Assembly: GCA_951406725.2 (NCBI GenBank)
Contig: OX597825.1
Location: forward strand, 77,934,001-77,998,000
DNA: 64,000 nt
Direction: 5' to 3'
DNA from: Octopus vulgaris
Taxonomy: Eukaryota
The position numbers and the translations under genes are program-made. Position 1 is the first letter of the stretch; each line of letters begins with the position of its first letter. The notes beneath the pieces are model-generated. The model did no database searches, was not told the DNA's origin, and saw only the letters and a list, made by a program, of their open reading frames with translations. Below are positions 7,385-56,926 of this stretch, in pieces.

Positions 7385-7417
7385 GGCAGACGGAGACGGC
7401 ATTATGTGCGTATATGT

Positions 7418-7555
7418 ATTAGTATAGCGCTCAGGAATAGAAAAAGTCTTTTACGTTTCGAGCCTACGCTCTTCGACAGAAAGATACACAGATAAAAAAA
7501 CAAGGAGAGAAACAAGGAGAGAAAAAAATGCGTGTAGTAGCTAACGATGGCGTCT

Positions 7556-8433: not shown

Positions 8434-9230
8434 TAAGTGTCCATGGATGCATTTGTGAATACATCTAAATATGTATGTGTATGTGTATATATATGTATAT
8501 AAATATATATATTTACATTTTTACAAATATACATATACATATATCTATACTCACATGCATACACATACACACATACGTATACATACATGTATATATATAT
8601 ACATACATATATATGCATACATATATATACATATATACAATATATATATACATATAATATATATATATATCTATGAATGTATGTATGTATGTACGTATGT
8701 ATACATGTATACACACATAGAAATGATAGAAATGTCACGGAAGAATTGTGTATGAGTATAAATGGTATACACATATACGTGTGTATGCAAGTGCGTGTGT
8801 GTGTATGCTTGTGCGTGTGTGTGTGTATGTGTGTATACGTGTGCGTGTGTATATATGTGCTTGCACGTGTATAAAATAAAGGGGTTGATATCTCCAGAAA
8901 AAGTGTGTCTGTGTGAGATCTTAATATGTATATTGATTTCTGTATACATCTATGCAAATAACTGTATCGGCCGACATCAAAAAGAAAGGAATGATATATT
9001 TACTAGTCTTGCTCCGGAAATTCAGATACGCTGATTTCCATTAAAGTTAGCTCTTGGGATAATATCAGGAATTTTCTGCTTATAATTAAAGACAAGTGCT
9101 AAAAATTGCATCGATAAAATTGACCAAAACCGAAAGCTATGCATGCAATAGGTTTAATAAATTACTATTAATCGATAAATCACACATAGGGATATATACA
9201 CATACACCCTTACACACATACACACACTTG

Positions 9231-9268
<38 letters not shown>

Positions 9269-9508
9269 CGTGCGTGTGGCATTTGTATGTGGGTATATAT
9301 GTACATATGTGTATAAATATATAGACGTGTTTACTTATGTATAAATATACATGTATGCATATATGTATATATATATGTATGTATATATATATATATATAT
9401 TTATATACATATGTCTTATCTATGTGCCTATGTATACATATATACGTACATACACACACACATATATGTATGTATATATATATATATGTATATATGTATC
9501 CATATATA

Positions 9509-9542
<34 letters not shown>

Positions 9543-9893
9543 CTTATATATATATAATATATAATATATATACGTATGTGTGTATGTGTTTAAAAGATTG
9601 TATGAGTGTGTGCTGGTATTTGCGCCTCGCATTCAACTTTTTTACGTATGACCATAGTCATCAATATGTATATATACATAGACACGTATATCGCATATAA
9701 TACACACACAGACAAATAAAAGAAACACACATATAAACACACACACACATTAGAATTTCAACAATACATTAATCGAATGTACAAACGAACGGACTCAGCA
9801 TGCCGCCATATTTACATAAATAAATATATATATAAATAAATAAATGAATAAGAAACCAAATAAATAAGTAAAGCGTCCCATACACACAATGTA

Positions 9894-9942
<49 letters not shown>

Positions 9943-9960
9943 TTATATATATATATATTG

Positions 9961-10017
<57 letters not shown>

Positions 10018-10031
10018 GAAACACACTGACA

Positions 10032-10149
<118 letters not shown>

Positions 10150-11044
10150 TGCATATATGCATATATACATATAGATGAGCAAATATGTTGATGGTAGCTT
10201 GAAATAGTACTGTAGTATACTCTACAGTACGTAGTATTTGGTACATAAATACCTGTCGTACCAAAGTGGTTAATCTGATGCCATTTGTTATGCAAACATT
10301 ATACAAACGACTGCCAAATGACTTCAATATCAAAAATAAATCATATCTATTCGTTATTGTTATGTAGTTGTCTGGGAGCGAGCTACAGTGTAATGCAGAA
10401 GGCTGCAACGTCGATAAATCTTGCAAGTTGCTTGTGTAACTAACAAGTTCGGGTTAAGTCAAATTGTGTTCTTTGGGTAAATAACTTTCCTTCTAGTAAA
10501 TCCCTACCATGTAGAATAATGCCCTCTAAGTGAATTTGATAATCACAAGAGGCATAGCGACTTGGACAAGTGTCTTCTACTATACTCTCGGACCGACGAA
10601 ATCGTGAGTGGATTTTGTAGACGGAAACTTAATTGTTTGTCTAAAGAAAAACCTAAAGGAAAATTTTCTGACTTAAAACATAAGTACTGAAATTCGATAT
10701 ATCAAATTAAAACCTTTAAGGTGGTACCCTAGCATGGTCCCAGTCCAATAACTGAAACAAGTGGAAGAATAAAAGAATATTTTTTCATCAACTGTGTGAC
10801 GTCATTGCGCTAAATTTGGTGGGATATCGTCTTTAAAATATAATTTGAGGGCTGATATACGTATGAATATGTTCGTAGTAATGTCCAAGGCGTCCTGTAT
10901 TGTATTACATTGTACAAATATATACATGTATGTACATACATATATATTCACATATATGTGTGTATGTATTTGTATATATAAATATATATCGACATACATT
11001 TGTTTGTATGTATTTATATATATATATATATATATCGCGCATTT

Positions 11045-11385
11045 ATAAACAATCCAGAAGGCTTTGTAAGTTACGGAGAGAAAGCTACTATGGAAGTCTA
11101 TTAGTACAAGAAAACTATAATAATATATATATATATTTTATCCTATATAAAGTGTCATTTATCTATAAACAAATTGAATGAAAAATGATGAGCCAGAATC
11201 GAACCCACATGTATATGCGTAAAACTTTGGCTGAAATTGATGGGTGAGTGTTTGGTCCAGTGGAATGTGCATGTAAGTCATGTGGGTTCGAATTTGGATA
11301 GGGTTAGCTCATCATTTTTCTGTCAAATTGTTTATATATAAATGTCGCTTTAAATCGTAGAATATATATACTATTATTGTGATAT
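11045..11385. mobile_element. Family E tRNA-headed element with inverted duplication
   Basis: A box 11253-11263 and B box 11285-11294; arms ~11165-11208 and ~11278-11336; 11045-11130 is the reverse complement of ~20500-20583. Confidence 0.7.
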
Positions 11386-11386
11386 A

Positions 11387-11446
<60 letters not shown>

Positions 11447-12173
11447 GTGTGTGTGTGTGTGTGGATAGATCGATAGATAGATAGATGCATTATGTATATA
11501 TTTTATATACTGACGCTAATGAACATAGTAAGTTGCCTACAATGCAATTTCTCAGATAATTTCCTGAAAAAGTGGCTCTAACCTCAAAATATTGAAATAC
11601 AAGATAAAAGTACAAACCAACCCCCTTATACACACATACTTTCAATATATATAATGTGTGTGTGTGTGTGTTATTTCTGAACAAACACTCACTCGCCAAC
11701 TGTTATGTTTCCTTATCTCTACAATCGCATTTTTATATCATCATTTTCGACAAGGTTTTGCCTTGTCCTATTTGTTTTCATACCATTCCGCTTATTGTGA
11801 ATGTTGTTATTGGTTCTTTCTATTATTCCCGTTGCTAGTATTCACAATGCTATTACCTTTAGTGTTTACCCTGCTTCCGTTATTGTTCCTGTTATCTATG
11901 TTAATGTCGATAGTTATACTTACATTAGGAACATTTGGACACTCACGATTTCTCCCCACTCCCAACCCCACCCGAGCACTATTGTCTTCCCGACTCCTTA
12001 GACCTAAGCTATTCCAGACGATATTTTTAAACTCTACGCTTACTATATTCAGCTTACTATTATTTAGATTATGACTATAGTATGCCAGGTTGCTTGATGT
12101 TTCATATGACAATTACATAATATGCCTGTTAAAAATCTTATGACACCTATAGATTTAGGGAAATGTCTATCTA

Positions 12174-12275
12174 ATGCGCACAAAAGATTTTCTAACCGTC
12201 TTAGATTCTACACGTAATCCGAATATTCGATTGAACCATAAAATGCTACCTTTGTTAGATTTATTATTATTTTCG
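12174..12275 (+). pseudogene. Highly decayed PLE RT fragment
   Basis: DFLTVLDSTRNPNIRLN..MLPLLDLLL resembles the PLE RT segment FL..LNS.HP.I.FT...LPFLD. Confidence 0.4.
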
Positions 12276-12464
12276 TTTTTAGTAAGAGTCACTAGGATCG
12301 GAATTAATAATAAGCTTTCTTTCCCTATTTCCAGCTGCCTTCCTTCTGTCTTTATTACTGCTTGTAATTATTTTGATTTGACTATCAGATTCTGATTCTA
12401 AGTATAGGTTTTCTCTTCTGCAATAACAACCCTAAGATTCACATCTTCTTTATGTCGGTTAATC

Positions 12465-12680
12465 CACATTACTCCTTAAGGAGCATAGGGCTGGTTTCCC
12501 GGTCTCTCTGGCGTATATATCTTCCTGGCTGGATGGGACGCCGTTCTGTCTCACTGTTACTCATTTTTTATCAACTGGATGGACCAGAACAACGTGAAAT
12601 TGAGTGTTTTGCTCAAGAATACAATGCTTTGCTCGGTGCAGGAATCGAAACCACGATCTTACGATCCAACACCCAAATCA
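12465..12680 (-). mobile_element. Diverged SINE related to family C
   Basis: catagggctggtttcccgg and ggaatcgaaaccacgatc resemble parts of 30825-31128 and 4354-4654. Confidence 0.55.
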
Positions 12681-12944
12681 CTGAGTACTACTCTTTATGC
12701 TAGTGTGTGTGTGTGTGTGTGTGTATGCGCACGCGCGTGTGTGTGTATTGAAAATTATAGCAACGCTTAATCTCTAGCTCTTTGACAAGACACCACTTTA
12801 TGTATGGCTGTACCTGATGTAACCCATACAACGTGTTGAACGGAGTGTCACCCATAAGAGAGAATAGCAGGATAGATCGAAACGATCGTTGTACTAGATA
12901 AAGACGAATACCAAATCTGTCTTCGGGTTACTTAATTATTATTA

Positions 12945-13356
12945 TTAGGTTGAATGAAAAGGTTCGTGCGCCGTGTTAAAAATAATGCTTTTTTTATATG
13001 ATGCAACTTGTTCGTCGAAAACGCGATTTGTTCCAACGAGACAATGCAAAGCTGCCTACCGCCAGAAAGCCCAGCAACAAGATTGAAGGATTGGACGGTG
13101 TGGAAGTTCTGCCGCATCCAGCCTATAGTCCAGACGTTGCTCCATCTGACTATGGTCTCTTCTGGTCAATGCAGCACTTTATGAAAGGTCGCCGATTTGA
13201 GTCATTCGATCAAGTTGAAGAAGGGTTGGTACTTTGACCAAAATCCGAAAGCTTGCAGATCGTTGGCAGAATGTCGTGGTAAATGATGGCCTTCATTTTG
13301 AAGAAAAGCTGTTTTTGAATAAATTCTTGCATAATGACTTTCAGTTCGTCATTATC
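12945..13356 (+). mobile_element. Internally deleted mariner element (DD34D C-terminal relic)
   Basis: LFQRDNA...VLPHPAYSPDVAPSDYGLF...KGRRFES, then [18 protein letters not shown]; starts TA-ttaggttg. Confidence 0.9.
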
Positions 13357-18214: not shown

Positions 18215-18445
18215 ACATGAAACCGTTAATCCCGACACATTTTTCTCTTCCCATGTGTTTTTTGTTTATTTTTGTTTTTTTCTTTCTCTTTCTCTCCATT
18301 TTTTTTCCTCTCATACATTTCTGTCAAAGAGAGTAGGCTCGAAACGCCAAAGACATTTCCATTTTTACCGAGCTTCAAACGAATACATCTGCGTGTTGTT
18401 CCCTCACCTGTCTCTGTCTTTTGGTGTCTGTAAATTTGAACATGG
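18215..18445 (+). mobile_element. Diverged PLE pseudo-LTR with decayed hammerhead (18318-18353)
   Basis: ctgtcaaagagagtaggctcgaaacgccaaaga aligns to 42894-42926. Confidence 0.7.
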
Positions 18446-20583: not shown

Positions 20584-21389
20584 TATATATATATATATAT
20601 AATATTTTACTTGCTTCAATCAGTGAGACATCGACTTCAAGGGTTTTAGTCAAAAGAATCGACCCAGAGTACCTATTTTTATAGCCTGGTACTTATTCTA
20701 TTGATCTCTTTTGCAGAAATGACAAGTTGTAGGGACGTAAACAGACCAACACTGGTTGTCAAGCGGTGTGCAGTGACAAACACAGAAACCAAGTCACACA
20801 CATACACACACACACATACACACACACATATATATATACGAATATTACATGGAGACATACATATGTACATACATATACGCACGCATGCGCACACACATAT
20901 ATATATGCGTTTATATTTGTGTATGTATGCATGAATATATGTATACAAATATACATAGAAGATCACATATGTACACCATAATTAGTTTGTTGTGGGTGCA
21001 TAACGAAATTGCACGTGTCATCAGGTCTGTAATATTTACATACCAGCGCCGGGAATGCGTTTAATATGTAAATTGGTATATCCAATAACTTAACACCGTT
21101 GTATGCAGTGGCTATATAAACAATATGTTTGGAGACAAGAATGGGTTAGATGAGTGCTGATGGAGGAGCAACAACCCCCGAAGTATGGCATATACACTCA
21201 ATAGCCTATTTTTGTCTCCGATCTCATTGTTTGCACCAGTGCTGGCTATAATTTCTGTTGCAATAACCTTAATATATATATATATAGGGCAATTTTATCA
21301 TGTTGAACCGTTAAAATTTAGACGTTTATTTTTTTCTTTTCACTCGCTCTCTCCGTTTTTTACCTCTTAATCTGTCGAAGATATATATA

Positions 21390-21519
21390 TTAGGTTGTCC
21401 CAAAAGTTCGTAAACACTTGCGAAAGTTGAATTTTTACTCGCCAAGCACTAACAAAAACAACAAAAATTATTCCTCAAAATAAAGACATTTATGTTTACG
21501 AACTTTTGGGACAACCTTA
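21390..21519. mobile_element. Tc1/mariner-type MITE (~130 bp)
   Basis: ~27-bp TIRs ttaggttgtcccaaaagttcgtaaaca / tgtttacgaacttttgggacaacctta; TA flanks. Confidence 0.9.
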
Positions 21520-21670
21520 TATAATGGAGAAATTATACAAAATGTCTAAGTGGTTGATGAGTAAAGCACCAGCACAATTTCGATTACCTGTTGTTATCCA
21601 TAGATTGCAGGAAATACATAGTGGCGGCAGAGGTAACAGTATTAATAAAATAGATGGTTGAAAAAAAGAT

Positions 21671-22503: not shown

Positions 22504-22599
22504 ATACGTATATATATACATATATATACATATATATATATATTTATACAATATACATATACATATATATGTGTATATATATATACAATATATATATAT

Positions 22600-22685
22600 A
22601 TAATAGGAAGCTTTATGAAAATAGACAAAAGACGAAGAAACAAACAAACAATTGTATTAGTATGGCGCTCAGGAAATATAAATAT
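22600..22685 (-). mobile_element. PLE extreme 3' terminal fragment in (TA)n
   Basis: Reverse complement of ~42935-43025 with a small deletion. Confidence 0.8.
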
Positions 22686-25904: not shown

Positions 25905-26144
25905 AATAAAAAAAAACGAAGAACAGACACAAAAAACAACAACGTGAGGACGTGGTACATGTAAAGTATTAGCAGACGCGCAGGGAAGGAAAGAAAGGTG
26001 GCTTAACGTTTCGAGCAAAGCTCTTTTTAGAAACAGAAGAAAGTCCTTACTCGTAATAGTAAGATTGTGACTTCAGTTTCTGAACCGGTTGTGCGTTTTG
26101 TTCTTGAGCAAAACATCTCATTTTCACGTTGCTTCGGTTCACAA

Positions 26145-27286: not shown

Positions 27287-27508
27287 TTATGTGCTTATCT
27301 GGTATATTCAACTGACGAAGTCAGAGCTTCTCTGATGCAAAGTCAGAAATCCAGGATCTTGAATTATCCAGAAAAATCTTTTTTTCTAGTTTATTTTGTC
27401 TCTCTGTCTTCTCTCTTAGCGCTATATGAACATTTAAGGTGGCTTTAGGGTCAGGGTTTTGACTGCTATTTCAGCATGGTGGTATCTCTCAGATACCCTA
27501 ATTTATAG

Positions 27509-39724: not shown

Positions 39725-39939
39725 TATATATATATATACATGTATACAGATGAATGTGTGTGTGTATGTCTATTGCTGTTTACGTCTATGTGAATAGGTA
39801 TTTATTTCATATACATATGTTATGAATATCTAAACATATACATGTTTGATACATACATACATGCATACATATATATATATATATATATACACAAGAAAAA
39901 AGCAACAAGTATATATATATATATATATATGCATATATA

Positions 39940-40468
39940 CGAGGGTGGGTCAAAAGGTAATGCCATTTTGTTTAGGACAGGTATAATTACCAACACAGGA
40001 ACATGTATCATACATTAAAATGAAGCTGGTCCTCTGTGGATCACATCCCTCTTTCTCAACCTAGTCACCGTTTATCTCAATAGCAATGTTCCACCTTCAA
40101 ATGAGAGCATGTATTCCTGCCCCCGTAAAATTCTATTGACTGGTCTTCACTACCTCCATACTCACCAGACTATCATCTCTTCGGTGCCACGAAAGAGGGT
40201 TTGAGAGGCAAACATTATTCCAGTCACGAGGAAGTGGAAACTGTAGTGAAGAAGTGGCTCGAAGAACAGTTATCAGAATTTAACGGGACAGGGGTACATG
40301 CTCTCATTCGAACGTGGAACATTACTATTGAGAGAAACGCTGACTGTGTTGAGAAGTCGGGATGTGATCCAAAGAGGACCAGCTTCATTTTGATGTATGA
40401 TACATGTTCCTGTGTTGGTAATTATACCTGTCCTAAACAAAATGGCATCACTGTTTGACTCACCCTCG
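39940..40468. mobile_element. Mariner-derived palindromic MITE (both arms from the 3' end)
   Basis: TA-cgagggtg...caccctcg-TA; ~200-bp inverted arms; plus strand encodes PYSPDYHLFG..KEGLRGKHYSSHEEVETVVKKWL...DCVEK. Confidence 0.9.
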
Positions 40469-40504
40469 TATATATGCATATATATATATATATGTATGTA
40501 TGTA

Positions 40505-42052
40505 TACAAACCCAACAACCCTGGCCGCCCCATCGTCTCCGCCTGTAACTGCCCCACGGAGCTCATCTCTAAATACCTCGACCGTGTCCTTGCCCCCCTA
40601 GTGGCATCTCTTCCCTCCCACATCCACGATACCAACCATGCTCTCCGGCTTTTCAACTCTTTCTCCTTTCCTCCCGGCTCCTCCAAAATCCTTTTTACTA
40701 TGGACATCCAAAGCCTCTATACTGTTATCCCTCACCACGAAGGACTGCAGGCCCTTCGACACTTTCTTGACCTCCGCTCTAACCCTGTACCTGACACCTC
40801 CACACTCATTCGTCTGGCCGAACTTGTCCTTACTCTGAACTGCTTCTCGTTCGCGGGCGAGTTCTACCATCAGGTCTCGGGAGTGGCCATGGGAACGCGA
40901 ATGGGCCCCAACTATGCGAACCTGTTCGTTGGCTATGTTGAGGCCCAAATATTCTCTAATTTCACTGGTCCCACTCCTGAACTATATGGTCGTTATATTG
41001 ACGACATTATCGGTGCCACCTCACTCTCCCGCGAACATCTAGATTCCTTCCTCTCTTTCGTCCAATCTTTCCATCCAGCCCTCCACTTCACTTCCACTAT
41101 CTCCAACACCTCTGTCTCCTTCCTCGACATTTCGGTTAGCATTCTTCACTCCACTCTTACCACCTCCATTCACTACAAACACACAGACTCACACTCATAC
41201 CTCAACTTCTCTTCCTCCCACCCAGAACACACCAAGCTTTCCATCCCCTATTCCCAATTCCTCCGTCTACGTAGGCTCTGTAGTGACGACCATGACTTTG
41301 AGACTCAGTCTCAACGTATGGCTCACCACTTCACCCTACGTGGATACCCCCTCACCACTATCCACACCGCCCTTGCCAGAGCACGGTCCGTGGACCGTGT
41401 ATCTGCTCTCTCTCCCCGAACCCGCCCTGTAGTCTCCCGCCTCCCTTTTCCCCTCACTTACCACCCCACGACCCTACGTCTCCAACGCACCATTCTTCGA
41501 GCTTTCCGTCATCTCCAGTCCGACCCGTCCACTTCACACCTCTTCCCTAACCGACCCCTCCCCTCTTTCAAACGAGCCCACAACCTTCGAGACCTTTTGG
41601 TCCATAGCTCCTTCCCTGACCCTACCTCCCAACCCGGCTCGTTCCCATGCTCCCGCCCACGTTGCCGCACTTGCCCTTACCTCTCCAACACCACCCGCCT
41701 CACTAGCACCCACCATCGACCCTATCCCATCATCCACTCCTTCACCTGCACCTCCAGCAATATTATCTATTGCATCTCTTGCTCTCTCTGCAATTCCTTG
41801 TACATCGGACAAACGGGACGCCGCTTGGCTGACCGGTTCGCGGAACACCTTCGTGACATCCACCTTGCGAACGACACACCGGTCTCACGCCATTTCCGCT
41901 CCACCGGTCACTCCTTGCAACACCTATCTGTGTTCGGTTTGTCCTTACACAGAGGCCATCCGGATTCCCGTTTGCGCCGTGAACAGGAATTAATCTTCTC
42001 TCTTCGCTCTTATACGCCATTTGGTCTCAACTCTCCTCCCCTCCTCATCTAA
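40505..42052 (+). CDS. PLE reverse transcriptase + Cys-rich linker + GIY-YIG endonuclease (515 codons, N-terminally truncated)
   Basis: PGRPIVS, LFTMDIQSLYT, GVAMGTRMGPNYANLF, YGRYIDD, SFLD, RLRRLCS, CSRPRCRTC, IIYCISCSLCNSLYIGQTGRRLADRFAEH; no stops or frameshifts. Confidence 0.95.
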   Translation, partial: YKPNNPGRPIVSACNCPTELISKYLDRVLAPLVASLPSHIHDTNHALRLFNSFSFPPGSSKILFTMDIQSLYTVIPHHEGLQALRHFLDLRSNPVPDTSTLIRLAELVLTLNCFSFAGEFYHQVSGVAMGTRMGPNYANLFVGYVEAQIFSNFTGPTPELYGRYIDDIIGATSLSREHLDSFLSFVQSFHPALHFTSTISNTSVSFLDISVSILHSTLTTSIHYKHTDSHSYLNFSSSHPEHTKLSIPYSQFLRLRRLCSDDHDFETQSQRMAHHFTLRGYPLTTIHTALARARSVDRVSALSPRTRPVVSRLPFPLTYHPTTLRLQRTILRAFRHLQSDPSTSHLFPNRPLPSFKRAHNLRDLLVHSSFPDPTSQPGSFPCSRPRCRTCPYLSNTTRLTSTHHRPYPIIHSFTCTSSNIIYCISCSLCNSLYIGQTGRRLADRFAEHLRDIHLANDTPVSRHFRSTGHSLQHLSVFGLSLHRGHPDSRLRREQELIFSLRSYTPFGLNSPPLLI

Positions 42053-42888
42053 CCCCCTCTCCCCCTCCTCACCTATCCTGTCTCCCCCCGACCCCTACTT
42101 CTTCAGTCCTTCATCCTTTTCACCCCTACTCCCCTTCCCTTCTTCCCTCTTTCTCCCTCCCTCTTCCCCTTCCCTCTGCTCCCTCACTCCCTCTCTCCCC
42201 TTCTCTCTCCCCCTCTCCATCTTTCCTCCTTCATCCCGCTCCTCCCCTTCCTTCTCCCCCATCCTCTCCTCTTCCCCCTTCTCCTCCCCCTCTTCTCCCC
42301 CTCCCCTTCTCTCCCCACCTCTTCTCCCCCTCCCCCTCTTCTCCTCACTACACCACATGACTTTACACATCACATCACATATGATGTGCCATACTAATAC
42401 ACACACCAACTAATACATACTAATACGTACTAATACATACTAGTACATACTAATACACCAACCCTATACATACACACGTCCAGACCCCGCATACGCACTT
42501 ATACTCTCACACACACACACACACACCTATACATACCAATACGTACTAATACATACTAATACATACTAATACATACACCAACCCCATATATACGCACGTC
42601 CAGACCAATCCTACGCACTAATACTCTCTCATACACACACACACACACACACCCTTATGCATACTAATACATACACCAACCCTATACATACACACATCCA
42701 GACCCCTCCCACGCACTATTAGCTGGTCCCTCAACCCTTTTATCAACCCTATTATCTCCCCCTATTTCGCTCTCGCGTCTCATGTTTGATCTTTGACCTC
42801 TGGCCGAAATCAGATCGCCATGTTGATTCGTTAGCTACTGCACGCATTTTTTTCTCTCCTTCTTTCTGTGTTTTTCTCTCTGTGTGTA

Positions 42889-42926
42889 TCTTTCTGTTGA
42901 AGAGCGTAGGCTCGAAACGTTAAAGA
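42889..42926 (+). ncRNA. Minimal hammerhead ribozyme of the PLE pseudo-LTR (A6U variant)
   Basis: tcttt-CTGTTGA-a-gagc-gtag-gctc-GAAA-cgt-t-aaaga; palindromic ACGT stem III. Confidence 0.75.
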
Positions 42927-43023
42927 CTTGTTTTATTTATATTTCCTGAGCGCCATACTAATACAATTGTTCGTTTGTTTTCCACCTGCCTTCGTCTTTT
43001 GTTTATTTTCATAAAGCTTCCCG

Positions 43024-43075
<52 letters not shown>

Positions 43076-43105
43076 ATATATATATATATGTATGTATATA
43101 TGCAT

Positions 43106-43331
43106 AAGGCGGCGAGTTGGCAGTAACGTTAGCGCGCCAGGCGAAATGCTTAGCGATACTTCGTCTGCCGTTACGTTCCGAGTTCAAATTCCGCTGAGGT
43201 CGACATTGACTTTCATCCTTTCGGGGTCGATAAATAAAGTACCAGTTACGCACTGGGGTCGATGTAATCGACTTAATATCTTTGTCTGTCCTTCTTTGTC
43301 CCTTCTATGTTTAGCACCTTGTGGGCAATAA

Positions 43332-44114: not shown

Positions 44115-44632
44115 TTAGTTAATTAGTTAAATTAATTTGGCTCAAAAGCAAATAGCAAGGGACATGGAGTTAAGTACAGGGTGGTGTTCATGTAAAGAGT
44201 TCAGGCCACTTGAGGTCAAGGGAGGCTTTGAACAAAGCGGTCGTCGGTATCTTCACCATCTCGTCTGGCAGCTTGTTCCACGGATCCGCAACCCGGACGG
44301 AGAAAGCTCCTCTCCTTCGATTGAGATGAAATCGTCGCAGGTTTTCGGAATGACCCCGCAGCCGACGCTCTGGAGCAGGAGTGAAGAACAGCTCTTTCGA
44401 GAGATTACACTTTCCGCTTATGATGTTGTGGGCGACAATGAGATCACCACGGCGGCGGCGTTTTTCTAGAGAATAAAGGTCGAGCGTCCTCAGCCTTTCT
44501 TCATAGGACAAATTTTTGAGACCATGAACCATGCGGGTAGCCAGCTTCTGGACTCTTTCGAGATGCTGTATGTCTTTGAGGAGATAAGGAGAAGAGGCTC
44601 GAATCCCGTACTCCAATATGGGTCTCACCATA
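44115..44632 (-). mobile_element. CR1-clade LINE 3' fragment
   Basis: VRPILEYG..SPYLLKDIQHLERVQKLATRMV.GLKNLSYEERL..LDLYSLEKRRRRGDLI...WNKLP...FKASLD; short tandem-repeat tail. Confidence 0.92.
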
Positions 44633-44864
44633 TGAATGTATTTTGATTTTAGTTTGCATATCCATACATATATATGTGCATATCCCTACATATTTATCTG
44701 GCCGCTCTGTATGGGTGTTTACTATCGTATTTTGCAAACAATACAAAAAATATCTATATAATGTACTAGCAGATCTTATGTAAGCATTTTTGTATTGTTT
44801 TCCTCAGCTTGTGACTGGTTTTTTTCGCCTACTTATTTCACCTACTTATTTCCTTTCTTTAGCA

Positions 44865-55649: not shown

Positions 55650-55812
55650 GGTGACTATACTTTTTTGTCTACCTTGTTTTTTCTTACCTTGTCTTTCCCT
55701 TCAGTAGAAGAGCGTATGCCCGAAACATAAAGGGGATTTTGTAATATTCCTAGGCGGAAACCTAAAATACCCTCTCTGTTTTTTACCATTTCTTCGTGTG
55801 ATCTTTTTGCCT
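55650..55812 (+). mobile_element. Diverged PLE pseudo-LTR with decayed hammerhead (55697-55734)
   Basis: ccctt-CAGTAGA-agagcgtatgccc-GAAA-cat-a-aaggg. Confidence 0.6.
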
Positions 55813-56260: not shown

Positions 56261-56655
56261 TATATATATATATACACACACACATTTATATAAAATAATC
56301 AGTATATAAGTCTTAATTTATCAAACTTCAATAAGTTTCATCAAATAAATGAAGTAGAATAGATATTAGAATGGATTATCCTTTTATCTCATAATCCCAT
56401 ACATACATAGAAGGATAAGCACATCATGAAATACTTTACGCGAGATGAAAACAGATTGTGTATTCCACTTTATATGCAAAATGCACATACATGCAAACAC
56501 ACACGTACATTACATGCATATATACAGACAAACAGACAGACGGATAGATAGATAGGTAGGTGCGTATTTTTGTATGTGTACATATATATATGTGTGTGTA
56601 TGTGTTTGTGTATATGTAGCAACATCTGATAGCCTGGTCGGTCACGGTGATCACG

Positions 56656-56708
<53 letters not shown>

Positions 56709-56713
<5 letters not shown>

Positions 56714-56926
56714 CGTGATCACCGTGACCGACCAGGCTATCAGATGTTGCTACACATCGCTGGTCACAATGCGCTTCGCATTGTTTTAGCCTCCAAAAGA
56801 GTGAGAGAAAGTTGTGGTGAAAGAGTACAGCAGGGATCACCACCATCCCCTGCTGGAGCCTCGTGGAGCTTTAGGTGTTTTCGCTCAATAAATACTCACA
56901 ACGCCCGGTCTGGGAATCGAAACCGC

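Follow-up and report, generated by a model that had tools for sequence, protein, structure and literature searches.

How far can the conserved core of a hammerhead motif depart from its consensus while the retroelement that carries it keeps spreading? The question is raised by a small motif in a window of Octopus vulgaris DNA (the whole stretch analysed, 64,000 nucleotides), which lies behind the truncated open reading frame (ORF) of a Penelope-like element (PLE) and has U at core position 6. PLE hammerheads show poor self-cleavage in vitro, and the one element tested in this respect could insert without cutting. Their minimal motifs, as described in the sections of PMC4209133 covered here, lack helix III; their cleavage is weak and depends on multimeric RNA or on the addition of a helix III. 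Judged from its sequence, A6U in the octopus element is a real core change, inherited and most likely derived, that marks the minimal hammerhead of a PLE family which is highly repeated and was recently mobile.

The motif runs exactly from stem I to stem I over the range delimited by an earlier sequence-only reading (Table 1), and all five copies for which that reading had claimed T at core position 6 were found at their places when the cores were re-read in the window: CTGTTGA at 42894, CTGTCGA at 7479 on the minus strand, CTGTCAA at 18321, CTGTCGA at 21372 and CAGTAGA at 55702. A pattern of the family motif matched the window four times with at most three mismatches, whereas 100 shuffles yielded no match at all (mean 0.00, maximum 0), so that the motif is not a product of chance. 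The hammerhead layout, proposed by the same reading to be kept in the U6 family, is whole apart from position 6 in the two best copies (42889 and 7415), where the stems, the extra base 9a, the G10.1-C11.1 pair, G8, G12, GUH and ACGU are intact and the palindrome is followed by U or A as H17; this set of palindrome and cut site is broken in the two old copies. Throughout the four complete copies of the window H17 is never G, G8 is kept in three and G12 in all. The consensus core CUGANGA is not matched, with U at position 6 in all five copies, and the motif should therefore not be filed as a canonical hammerhead before an assay.

Table 1. Parts of the element, of its hammerhead motif and of related copies, in positions of the window.
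Feature	Position	Strand	Remarks
5'-truncated PLE ORF	40508..42052	+	RT, CxxxxCxxC linker, C-terminal GIY-YIG; about the last 514 of 800-890 aa; start adjoins a (TA)n run
Long 3' untranslated part	42053..42888	+	Polypyrimidine run, repeat unit, U-rich leader before the motif
Minimal type I hammerhead motif	42889..42926	+	Span from stem I to stem I
Motif, stem I	42889-93/42922-26		5 pairs
Motif, core C3-A9	42894-42900		U6 = 42897
Motif, extra A (9a) after A9	42901		
Motif, stem II	42902-05/42910-13		4 pairs, G10.1-C11.1 closing, 4-base loop
Motif, GAAA	42914-17		
Motif, ACGU palindrome	42917-20		For a dimer helix III
Motif, predicted cut after H17	42921		
Element 3' tail beyond predicted cut	42927..43024	+	Ends at a (TA)n run
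Dispersed 3'-end copy	7415..7547	-	84% alike to main copy; whole motif, U6, C7, A17; ends 44 bases beyond predicted cut
Older copy	18277..18423	+	71% alike; U6 kept; G8A, U16.1C, stem mismatches (decayed)
Copy ending inside motif	21300..21381	+	Core 21372-21378 with U6; 5' limit approximate
Most distant copy	55661..55806	+	64% alike; U6 retained; both sides of two stem I pairs altered; U4A, G16.2A (decayed)
Tail-only copy (BLAST)	22597..22684	-	87% alike; starts 13 bases downstream of predicted cut
Degenerate relative	25994..26040	-	Stem II, GAAA, ACGU, GUU kept; 5' core scrambled, position 6 ambiguous; E 1.3e-4

General searches gave little for such a motif. Rfam models had no match with E<=10 at 42780-43020, and five loci with minimal motifs of this kind, four of them with a canonical core, were likewise without a hammerhead match. 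The miRNA matches of the Rfam scan of the window were microsatellite artefacts below their cut-offs, the top ones deriving from one of two small inverted-repeat elements found at (TA)n (21386-21523 and 56609-56756, the latter being the source). The family pattern with U6 had no match in viral contigs, where none of 96 looser U6 matches passed a two-stem filter and protein relatives of the window ORF were not found either; three matches in bacterial genomes were discarded for lacking GUH or stem I. Two candidate structures were also rejected. A pseudoknot of loop II with an upstream CUAC would use a site that varies (variant rows at 42835-42837) and is absent from other copies. Folding further predicts pairing of U6 with A15.1 in a long monomer hairpin, which as a stable fold does no better than shuffles (27 and 88 of 200 fold equally well).

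The copies dispersed in the window tell how U6 arose in them. Those that are 64-84% alike to the main copy (BLAST, over some 140-160 columns for the 84%, 71% and 64% copies) all have U6, which is thus older than their split and inherited, rather than a private decay. Since the copies with cores at 18321 and 55702 have suffered extra core damage, they are evidence for the ancestry of U6 and not for a present function. The T7 and A8 states of two copies would fit CpG decay from a C7-G8 ancestor, and in the copy at 21300..21381 the motif is cut after 10 bases by a (TA)n run followed by a small inverted-repeat element. A covariance model made from four window copies and 12 relatives gave 16 matches in the window at E<=10, comprising these four copies (which, like the 12 relatives, match by construction), the degenerate relative at 25994-26040 and a weak remainder; no A6 copy of the U6 family was found by the scans of the window. 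A hammerhead-like motif of another family lies at 27302-27369 on the plus strand, with the canonical A6, a stem I of five pairs, a hairpin of seven, GAAA, a near-palindromic 7-mer and UC; it occurs as one copy with a model E of 0.13 and, if real, would mean that the host has A6 motifs as well.

Each of the four complete motif copies continues beyond the predicted cut by 44-103 bases, and at least two classes of ends occur among them. Such an overrun occurs in A6 relatives too and is for this reason no proof of inactivity. The tail-only copy that starts 13 bases behind the cut is a single case, which ordinary truncation would explain equally well. Within the 3' part of the element, a 120-base unit present in 2.1 copies (42399-42646) is made of ACTAATACAT repeats, and a CATACTAATAC word repeated there recurs behind the motif at 42954-42965, where the 7415 copy ends, other copies ending about 60 bases after that point. 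This recurrence, together with the two end points, resembles an optional PLE tail between two start sites of reverse transcription.

That the element is a PLE, as had been read from the letters, was borne out by its domains and protein relatives. The ORF contains an RT domain (PF00078, E 1.5e-7, above cut-off) and, in the same frame, a C-terminal GIY-YIG domain (PF01541, E 4.5e-4, 20.9 bits, below the curated cut-off of 22.6, with 20.8 and 25.0 bits for full-length relatives). Among 8000 candidates 1164 were relatives of its protein, the best being about 53-59% identical over most of its length, and the 800-890 aa of the full-length ones indicate that the window copy lacks its 5' third. The linker C-x4-C-x2-C, at residues 381-389 of the translated part, is invariant across 20 aligned proteins. 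Both ends of the main copy lie in (TA)n; a zinc-finger-like linker between RT and endonuclease and (TA)n targets are features of Neptune elements, the linker being a feature of Nematis as well. The Neptune label would follow from the motif of the sister clade, which matches a Neptune motif of Acropora (PMC4209133), the tree itself holding no named Neptune or Nematis proteins. As to the term pseudo-LTR, applied in the earlier reading, a second pseudo-LTR is absent from the main copy, which is truncated at its 5' end and has one motif. In one relative (L002) the ORF is flanked by two occurrences of the motif, spaced 3066 bases apart. The window motif stands some 840 bases behind the ORF versus mostly 100-160 in relatives. 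The view that the copy bearing the ORF is young found further support. Its 514 codons without a stop are weak evidence alone (chance 0.14 at 5% divergence); stronger evidence is that 68-86% of 258 sampled 31-mers of the ORF were present in 20 of the 24 runs listed (10 studies, four organisms), or 68-83% without the best holder, a possible source. Such sharing places the ORF within about 1% of sequences in those runs, with the reservation that many copies jointly supply the words.

The surroundings are microsatellite-rich animal DNA with other repeats. Directly upstream of the truncated PLE lies a MITE-like element in (TA)n (39911-40497), whose 219-base arms are 90% complementary. Downstream, a SINE-like repeat on the plus strand (43069-43200) is presumably typical of octopus genomes, and a stop-free frame on the minus strand (44188-44685) looks like the C-terminal part of a LINE protein, which we take to be of a CR1/L2-like family.

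The abundance of the 3' end was followed in contigs of four of the 24 listed runs aligned to 42700-43030. Three large DNA-like runs placed 8,676-13,283 contigs on these 331 bases, which indicates that the 3' end of the element is highly repeated in three organisms. In the same runs, summed contig depth over the motif was 2.3-6.3 times that of adjoining bins, and hundreds of contigs fitted the motif only, their long loose ends lying before 42883-42891 and behind 42929. The pattern suggests that subfamilies have the motif in common but differ in their flanks; the depth is no copy number and may include A6 families of similar stem II. One loose end, from three contigs of run X7, spells the core of a further subfamily with U6 and A7, and no cluster of insertion ends at the predicted cut was seen among the loose ends listed. 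None of the runs listed as sharing the ORF was marked as RNA, and the 12-16-fold depth peak of run X7 over the motif was dismissed as evidence of transcription, this run being only guessed to be RNA. Of the 35 rows of the variant table, five lie within the motif (38 bases) and 30 in the remaining 293; their density is no lower in the motif and so shows no conservation. The commonest rows in the motif, over the four runs, are T>A at H17 (59-88% of depth) and T>G at N7 (8-15%), both positions being free to vary in active hammerheads; the remaining ones are T>C in outer stem I at 42889 (5-43%) and two CpG changes. The change at 42889 matches the 5' stem I change of the 55702 copy, with its partner change absent from the listed rows. 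None of the listed rows falls on conserved core bases, 42897 included, where about 1.3 would be expected by chance on 13 core positions. The table is incomplete, as it lacks T>C at 42898 (N7), present in three of the four other window copies, and lists one strand only of each CpG. Because it omits real variants, a missing T>A row at 42897 carries little weight.

Relatives outside the window gave the direction of the change. A metagenome scan recovered 373 relatives among 459 candidates, and in the best 80 of these loci the covariance model found 49 motifs at E<=1. Position 6 was A in all 37 motifs with E<1e-4 and in 44 of the 47 with E<0.01, counts in which the rows are not independent, several coming from one family; the non-A rows at E<0.01 were one U (L065, where the core has changed further), a G in a partial match and a gap. 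When A6 was not required, a scan of the best 80 related loci found no U6 motif with both stems. A quick tree with midpoint root and without reference PLEs was built from the window protein, the 25 of the 80 loci with a motif just behind the ORF and eight of 120 listed proteins. The window protein falls in a clade of 16 rows (99% SH-aLRT) and is there sister to 15 rows (95%), although its composition departs from the alignment, making its exact placement less sure than the support suggests. Apart from its A6, the motif of the sister clade agrees with the window motif in the core, in the CG palindrome and along the 3' strand of stem II, and outside the clade of 16 rows all tree motifs but that of L065 have A6. 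With A in the relatives and in the closest clade, A6U in the window family is, on sequence grounds, most likely the derived state, and the early claim that U6 is the shared state of the family (five of five window copies) is thereby extended. Within the sister clade, a subclade of six rows, five of them distinct (98% support; L027, L041, L060, L062, L013 and L075), carries U4C; C4 was also read in L008, L044, L053, L066, L073 and L074, and accounts for eight of the 37 strong matches and 15 of the 47 at E<0.01. U4C and A6U together mean that the CUGA turn has been altered at least twice in the group. In L065, two stretches on the plus strand (1500-1547 and 1754-1804) form a tandem PLE junction where one motif reads U3, C4, U6 and A8, and a second canonical 5' core without GAAA lies near the apparent start of the next ORF; the motif of this single copy could represent decay or another variant.

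Whether the fold has been maintained was approached through covariation and conservation. The change of stem I from tcttt/aaaga to ccctt/aaggg, which the sequence-only reading had taken as covariation of the family, is real and affects two pairs on both sides; as covariation it falls short of significance, being that of one copy (55702) and reached by 56 of 500 shuffles. When the four window copies were joined with the 12 relatives, 92.9% of cells pair and none of 500 shuffles reached the covariation score, in a control that ignores relatedness. Within the window, the motif was more alike than its flanks in six of six pairs of copies, never significantly (pairwise Fisher, p 0.15-0.32).

What, then, may the U6 motif do? 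We give an even chance to its being the 3'-end hammerhead of a Neptune-type PLE with a lineage-specific U6 that is likely still a slowed ribozyme, cutting only as a dimer and with the protein of the element. The two motifs of a tandem transcript would pair through the ACGU palindrome to build helix III, G12 and G8 would still serve catalysis, and U6 would weaken the CUGA turn and lower the rate. The slower cutting would cost little or even help, because reverse transcription uses RNA uncut at this site, and the family would have kept amplifying after the change. Such a ribozyme is rated the most likely explanation in view of an otherwise preserved active site and palindrome and of the variation at N7 and H17; it is also supported by the anatomy of the motif, by U6 in the 64-84% copies, by the A6 of relatives, by insertions that extend past the predicted cut, by the subfamilies that share the motif and by the second change (U4C) of the CUGA turn. 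The slow but active natural A6C, the protein-dependent hammerhead of a lizard PLE and the weak, multimer-dependent cutting of PLE minimal motifs speak for it as well. Nevertheless, A6U should sharply lower intrinsic cleavage, and a loss on the scale of A6C in a motif already slow may mean no cleavage at all; moreover, mutants of the CUGA turn are nearly all of low activity, no cluster of insertion ends at the predicted cut stands among the loose ends listed, conservation of the motif over its flanks is not significant and in-family covariation comes from one copy. Along this line it is conceivable, if somewhat unlikely, that the motif with A6U, unable to cut alone, needs binding by the protein of the element (or Mn2+) to act, or never acts, serving as a switch or a purely structural signal whose fold is kept by selection.

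That the motif no longer cuts and keeps its hammerhead shape as a structural signal, for instance as a site for binding or positioning the RT-endonuclease near the start of reverse transcription, we regard as unlikely. Changes at A6 are strongly damaging in vitro (PMC9901934, PMC7151607, as far as covered here), cleavage was not needed for insertion in the PLE studied in PMC11167929, and the degenerate relative keeps stem II, GAAA and ACGU despite its scrambled 5' core; the overrun of all complete copies and the predicted U6-A15.1 pairing would also fit a dead structure, but the former is shared with A6 relatives and the latter belongs to a hairpin no more stable than shuffles. The listed variation at N7 and H17 is moreover like that of active hammerheads, and G8 and G12 are largely kept. 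Still less favoured, and distinctly unlikely, is that A6U killed a dispensable ribozyme in a successful master and spread along with it, what remains of the motif being due to its recent descent or to a constraint at the DNA level, for instance by a promoter. Naiad PLEs have spread without canonical hammerheads (PMC8557442, in the sections covered), and the window offers no significant excess of motif conservation. Its older copies with broken cores may be counted on the same side, yet such decay after insertion is expected in any copy; subfamilies of unlike flanks share the motif, as seen in the loose ends and the depth peak, and two stem I pairs have changed on both sides in the 55702 copy, with the matching 5' change, T>C at 42889, found in the runs as well, though its partner is not among the rows listed. 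A further scenario, in which the U6 copies form a branch mobilised in trans and the autonomous masters have kept the canonical A6, appears highly improbable. It draws on the 5' truncation of the window copy, on the want of a full-length element in the window and on the little that the absent T>A row at 42897 can say, but U6 is attached to a stop-free ORF lying within about 1% of sequences in four organisms and is common to copies down to 64% identity, no A6 copy of the family being found in the window.

Although confined to five informative copies and to sequence, the finding matters in either outcome. A family has spread despite a change at a nearly invariant base, and its close relatives differ there and at few other positions, which provides a natural comparison of U6 with A6. 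If the U6 motif cuts, the dimer or the complex with protein could do without A6; otherwise, the fold of a ribozyme would have been kept for a non-catalytic job. Published descriptors of PLE hammerheads, in the sections covered here, fix the CUGA core and cannot see such families, and descriptors of the CUGANGA type would likewise miss U4C, the second change of the CUGA turn at the level of a family. Should the reading as a switch or structural signal be true, Neptune-type elements would repeatedly detune the CUGA turn (A6U plus the independent U4C), and many PLEs filed as lacking hammerheads would hide such variants.

No natural A6U hammerhead was found in the literature searched, within the sections covered. 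The survey of Lünse, Weinberg and Breaker (RNA Biol 14:1499), which lay outside this search and may have rows with U6, is reportedly the largest of such motifs, with about 150,000. In Fig. S3 of PMC4209133 (Cervera and De la Pena 2014), 56 of 56 motifs have A6, from a search that required A6 and a set including no cephalopod. The covered sections of PMC8557442, bioRxiv 10.64898/2026.07.22.740005, PMC7229834, PMC6765202, PMC6466107, PMC12192606, PMC11014351 and PMC8967140 name no such variant, and the 'A6U' of PMC11662667 belongs to a twister paper, not to a hammerhead. A repeat annotation of Octopus vulgaris (PMC13282606) describes recently active Penelope-like families, with no mention of hammerheads in the sections covered.

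The element and the class of its motif are known already, the U6 family variant being what appears new. As in the metazoan PLE minimal type I hammerheads of pseudo-LTRs described in PMC4209133, the window motif has a short stem I, an extra base between A9 and G10.1, a G10.1-C11.1 pair, no helix III in the monomer, a palindromic 15.2-16.2, a UH cut site and a place behind the ORF; unlike them, it has U6 and is separated from the ORF by about 840 bases. One locus (L005) in the sister clade of the window protein has a motif that matches, from stem I to stem I, the Acropora digitifera Neptune motif printed there. The U3-A8 core of the Schistosoma Cercyon PLE (PMC4209133) is likewise non-canonical throughout a family and missed by the standard descriptor, but it keeps a base pair, whereas A6U in the window has no evident compensation. 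A natural change at position 6 itself is found in the hammerhead of phage Bcep176, where A6C is slow yet active (PMC3088659) and largely rescued by Mn2+ (PMC7151607). Here the base is C and not U, and a single assayed phage ribozyme with its own helix III is compared with a highly repeated retroelement family known from its sequence. In a fast hammerhead, A6C lowered the Mg2+ rate from 0.3 to 3.55e-6 per min, about 10^5-fold slower at 0.3 mM Mg2+ (PMC7151607), and in a comprehensive mutagenesis single and double mutants of the CUGA turn all had low activity except for the C3/G8 swap (PMC9901934). A functional parallel comes from Poseidon of Anolis carolinensis (PMC11167929), like the window element a PLE with a hammerhead and then a tail, although its motif overlaps the start of the ORF, it belongs to another PLE clade and the covered sections mention no change at position 6. 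The Poseidon hammerhead cuts only with the protein of the element, its catalytic mutants remain capable of insertion in vitro, and the uncut RNA from which the element inserts is reverse transcribed from a start downstream of the motif; the overrun of 44-103 bases in the window copies is in line with such a start.
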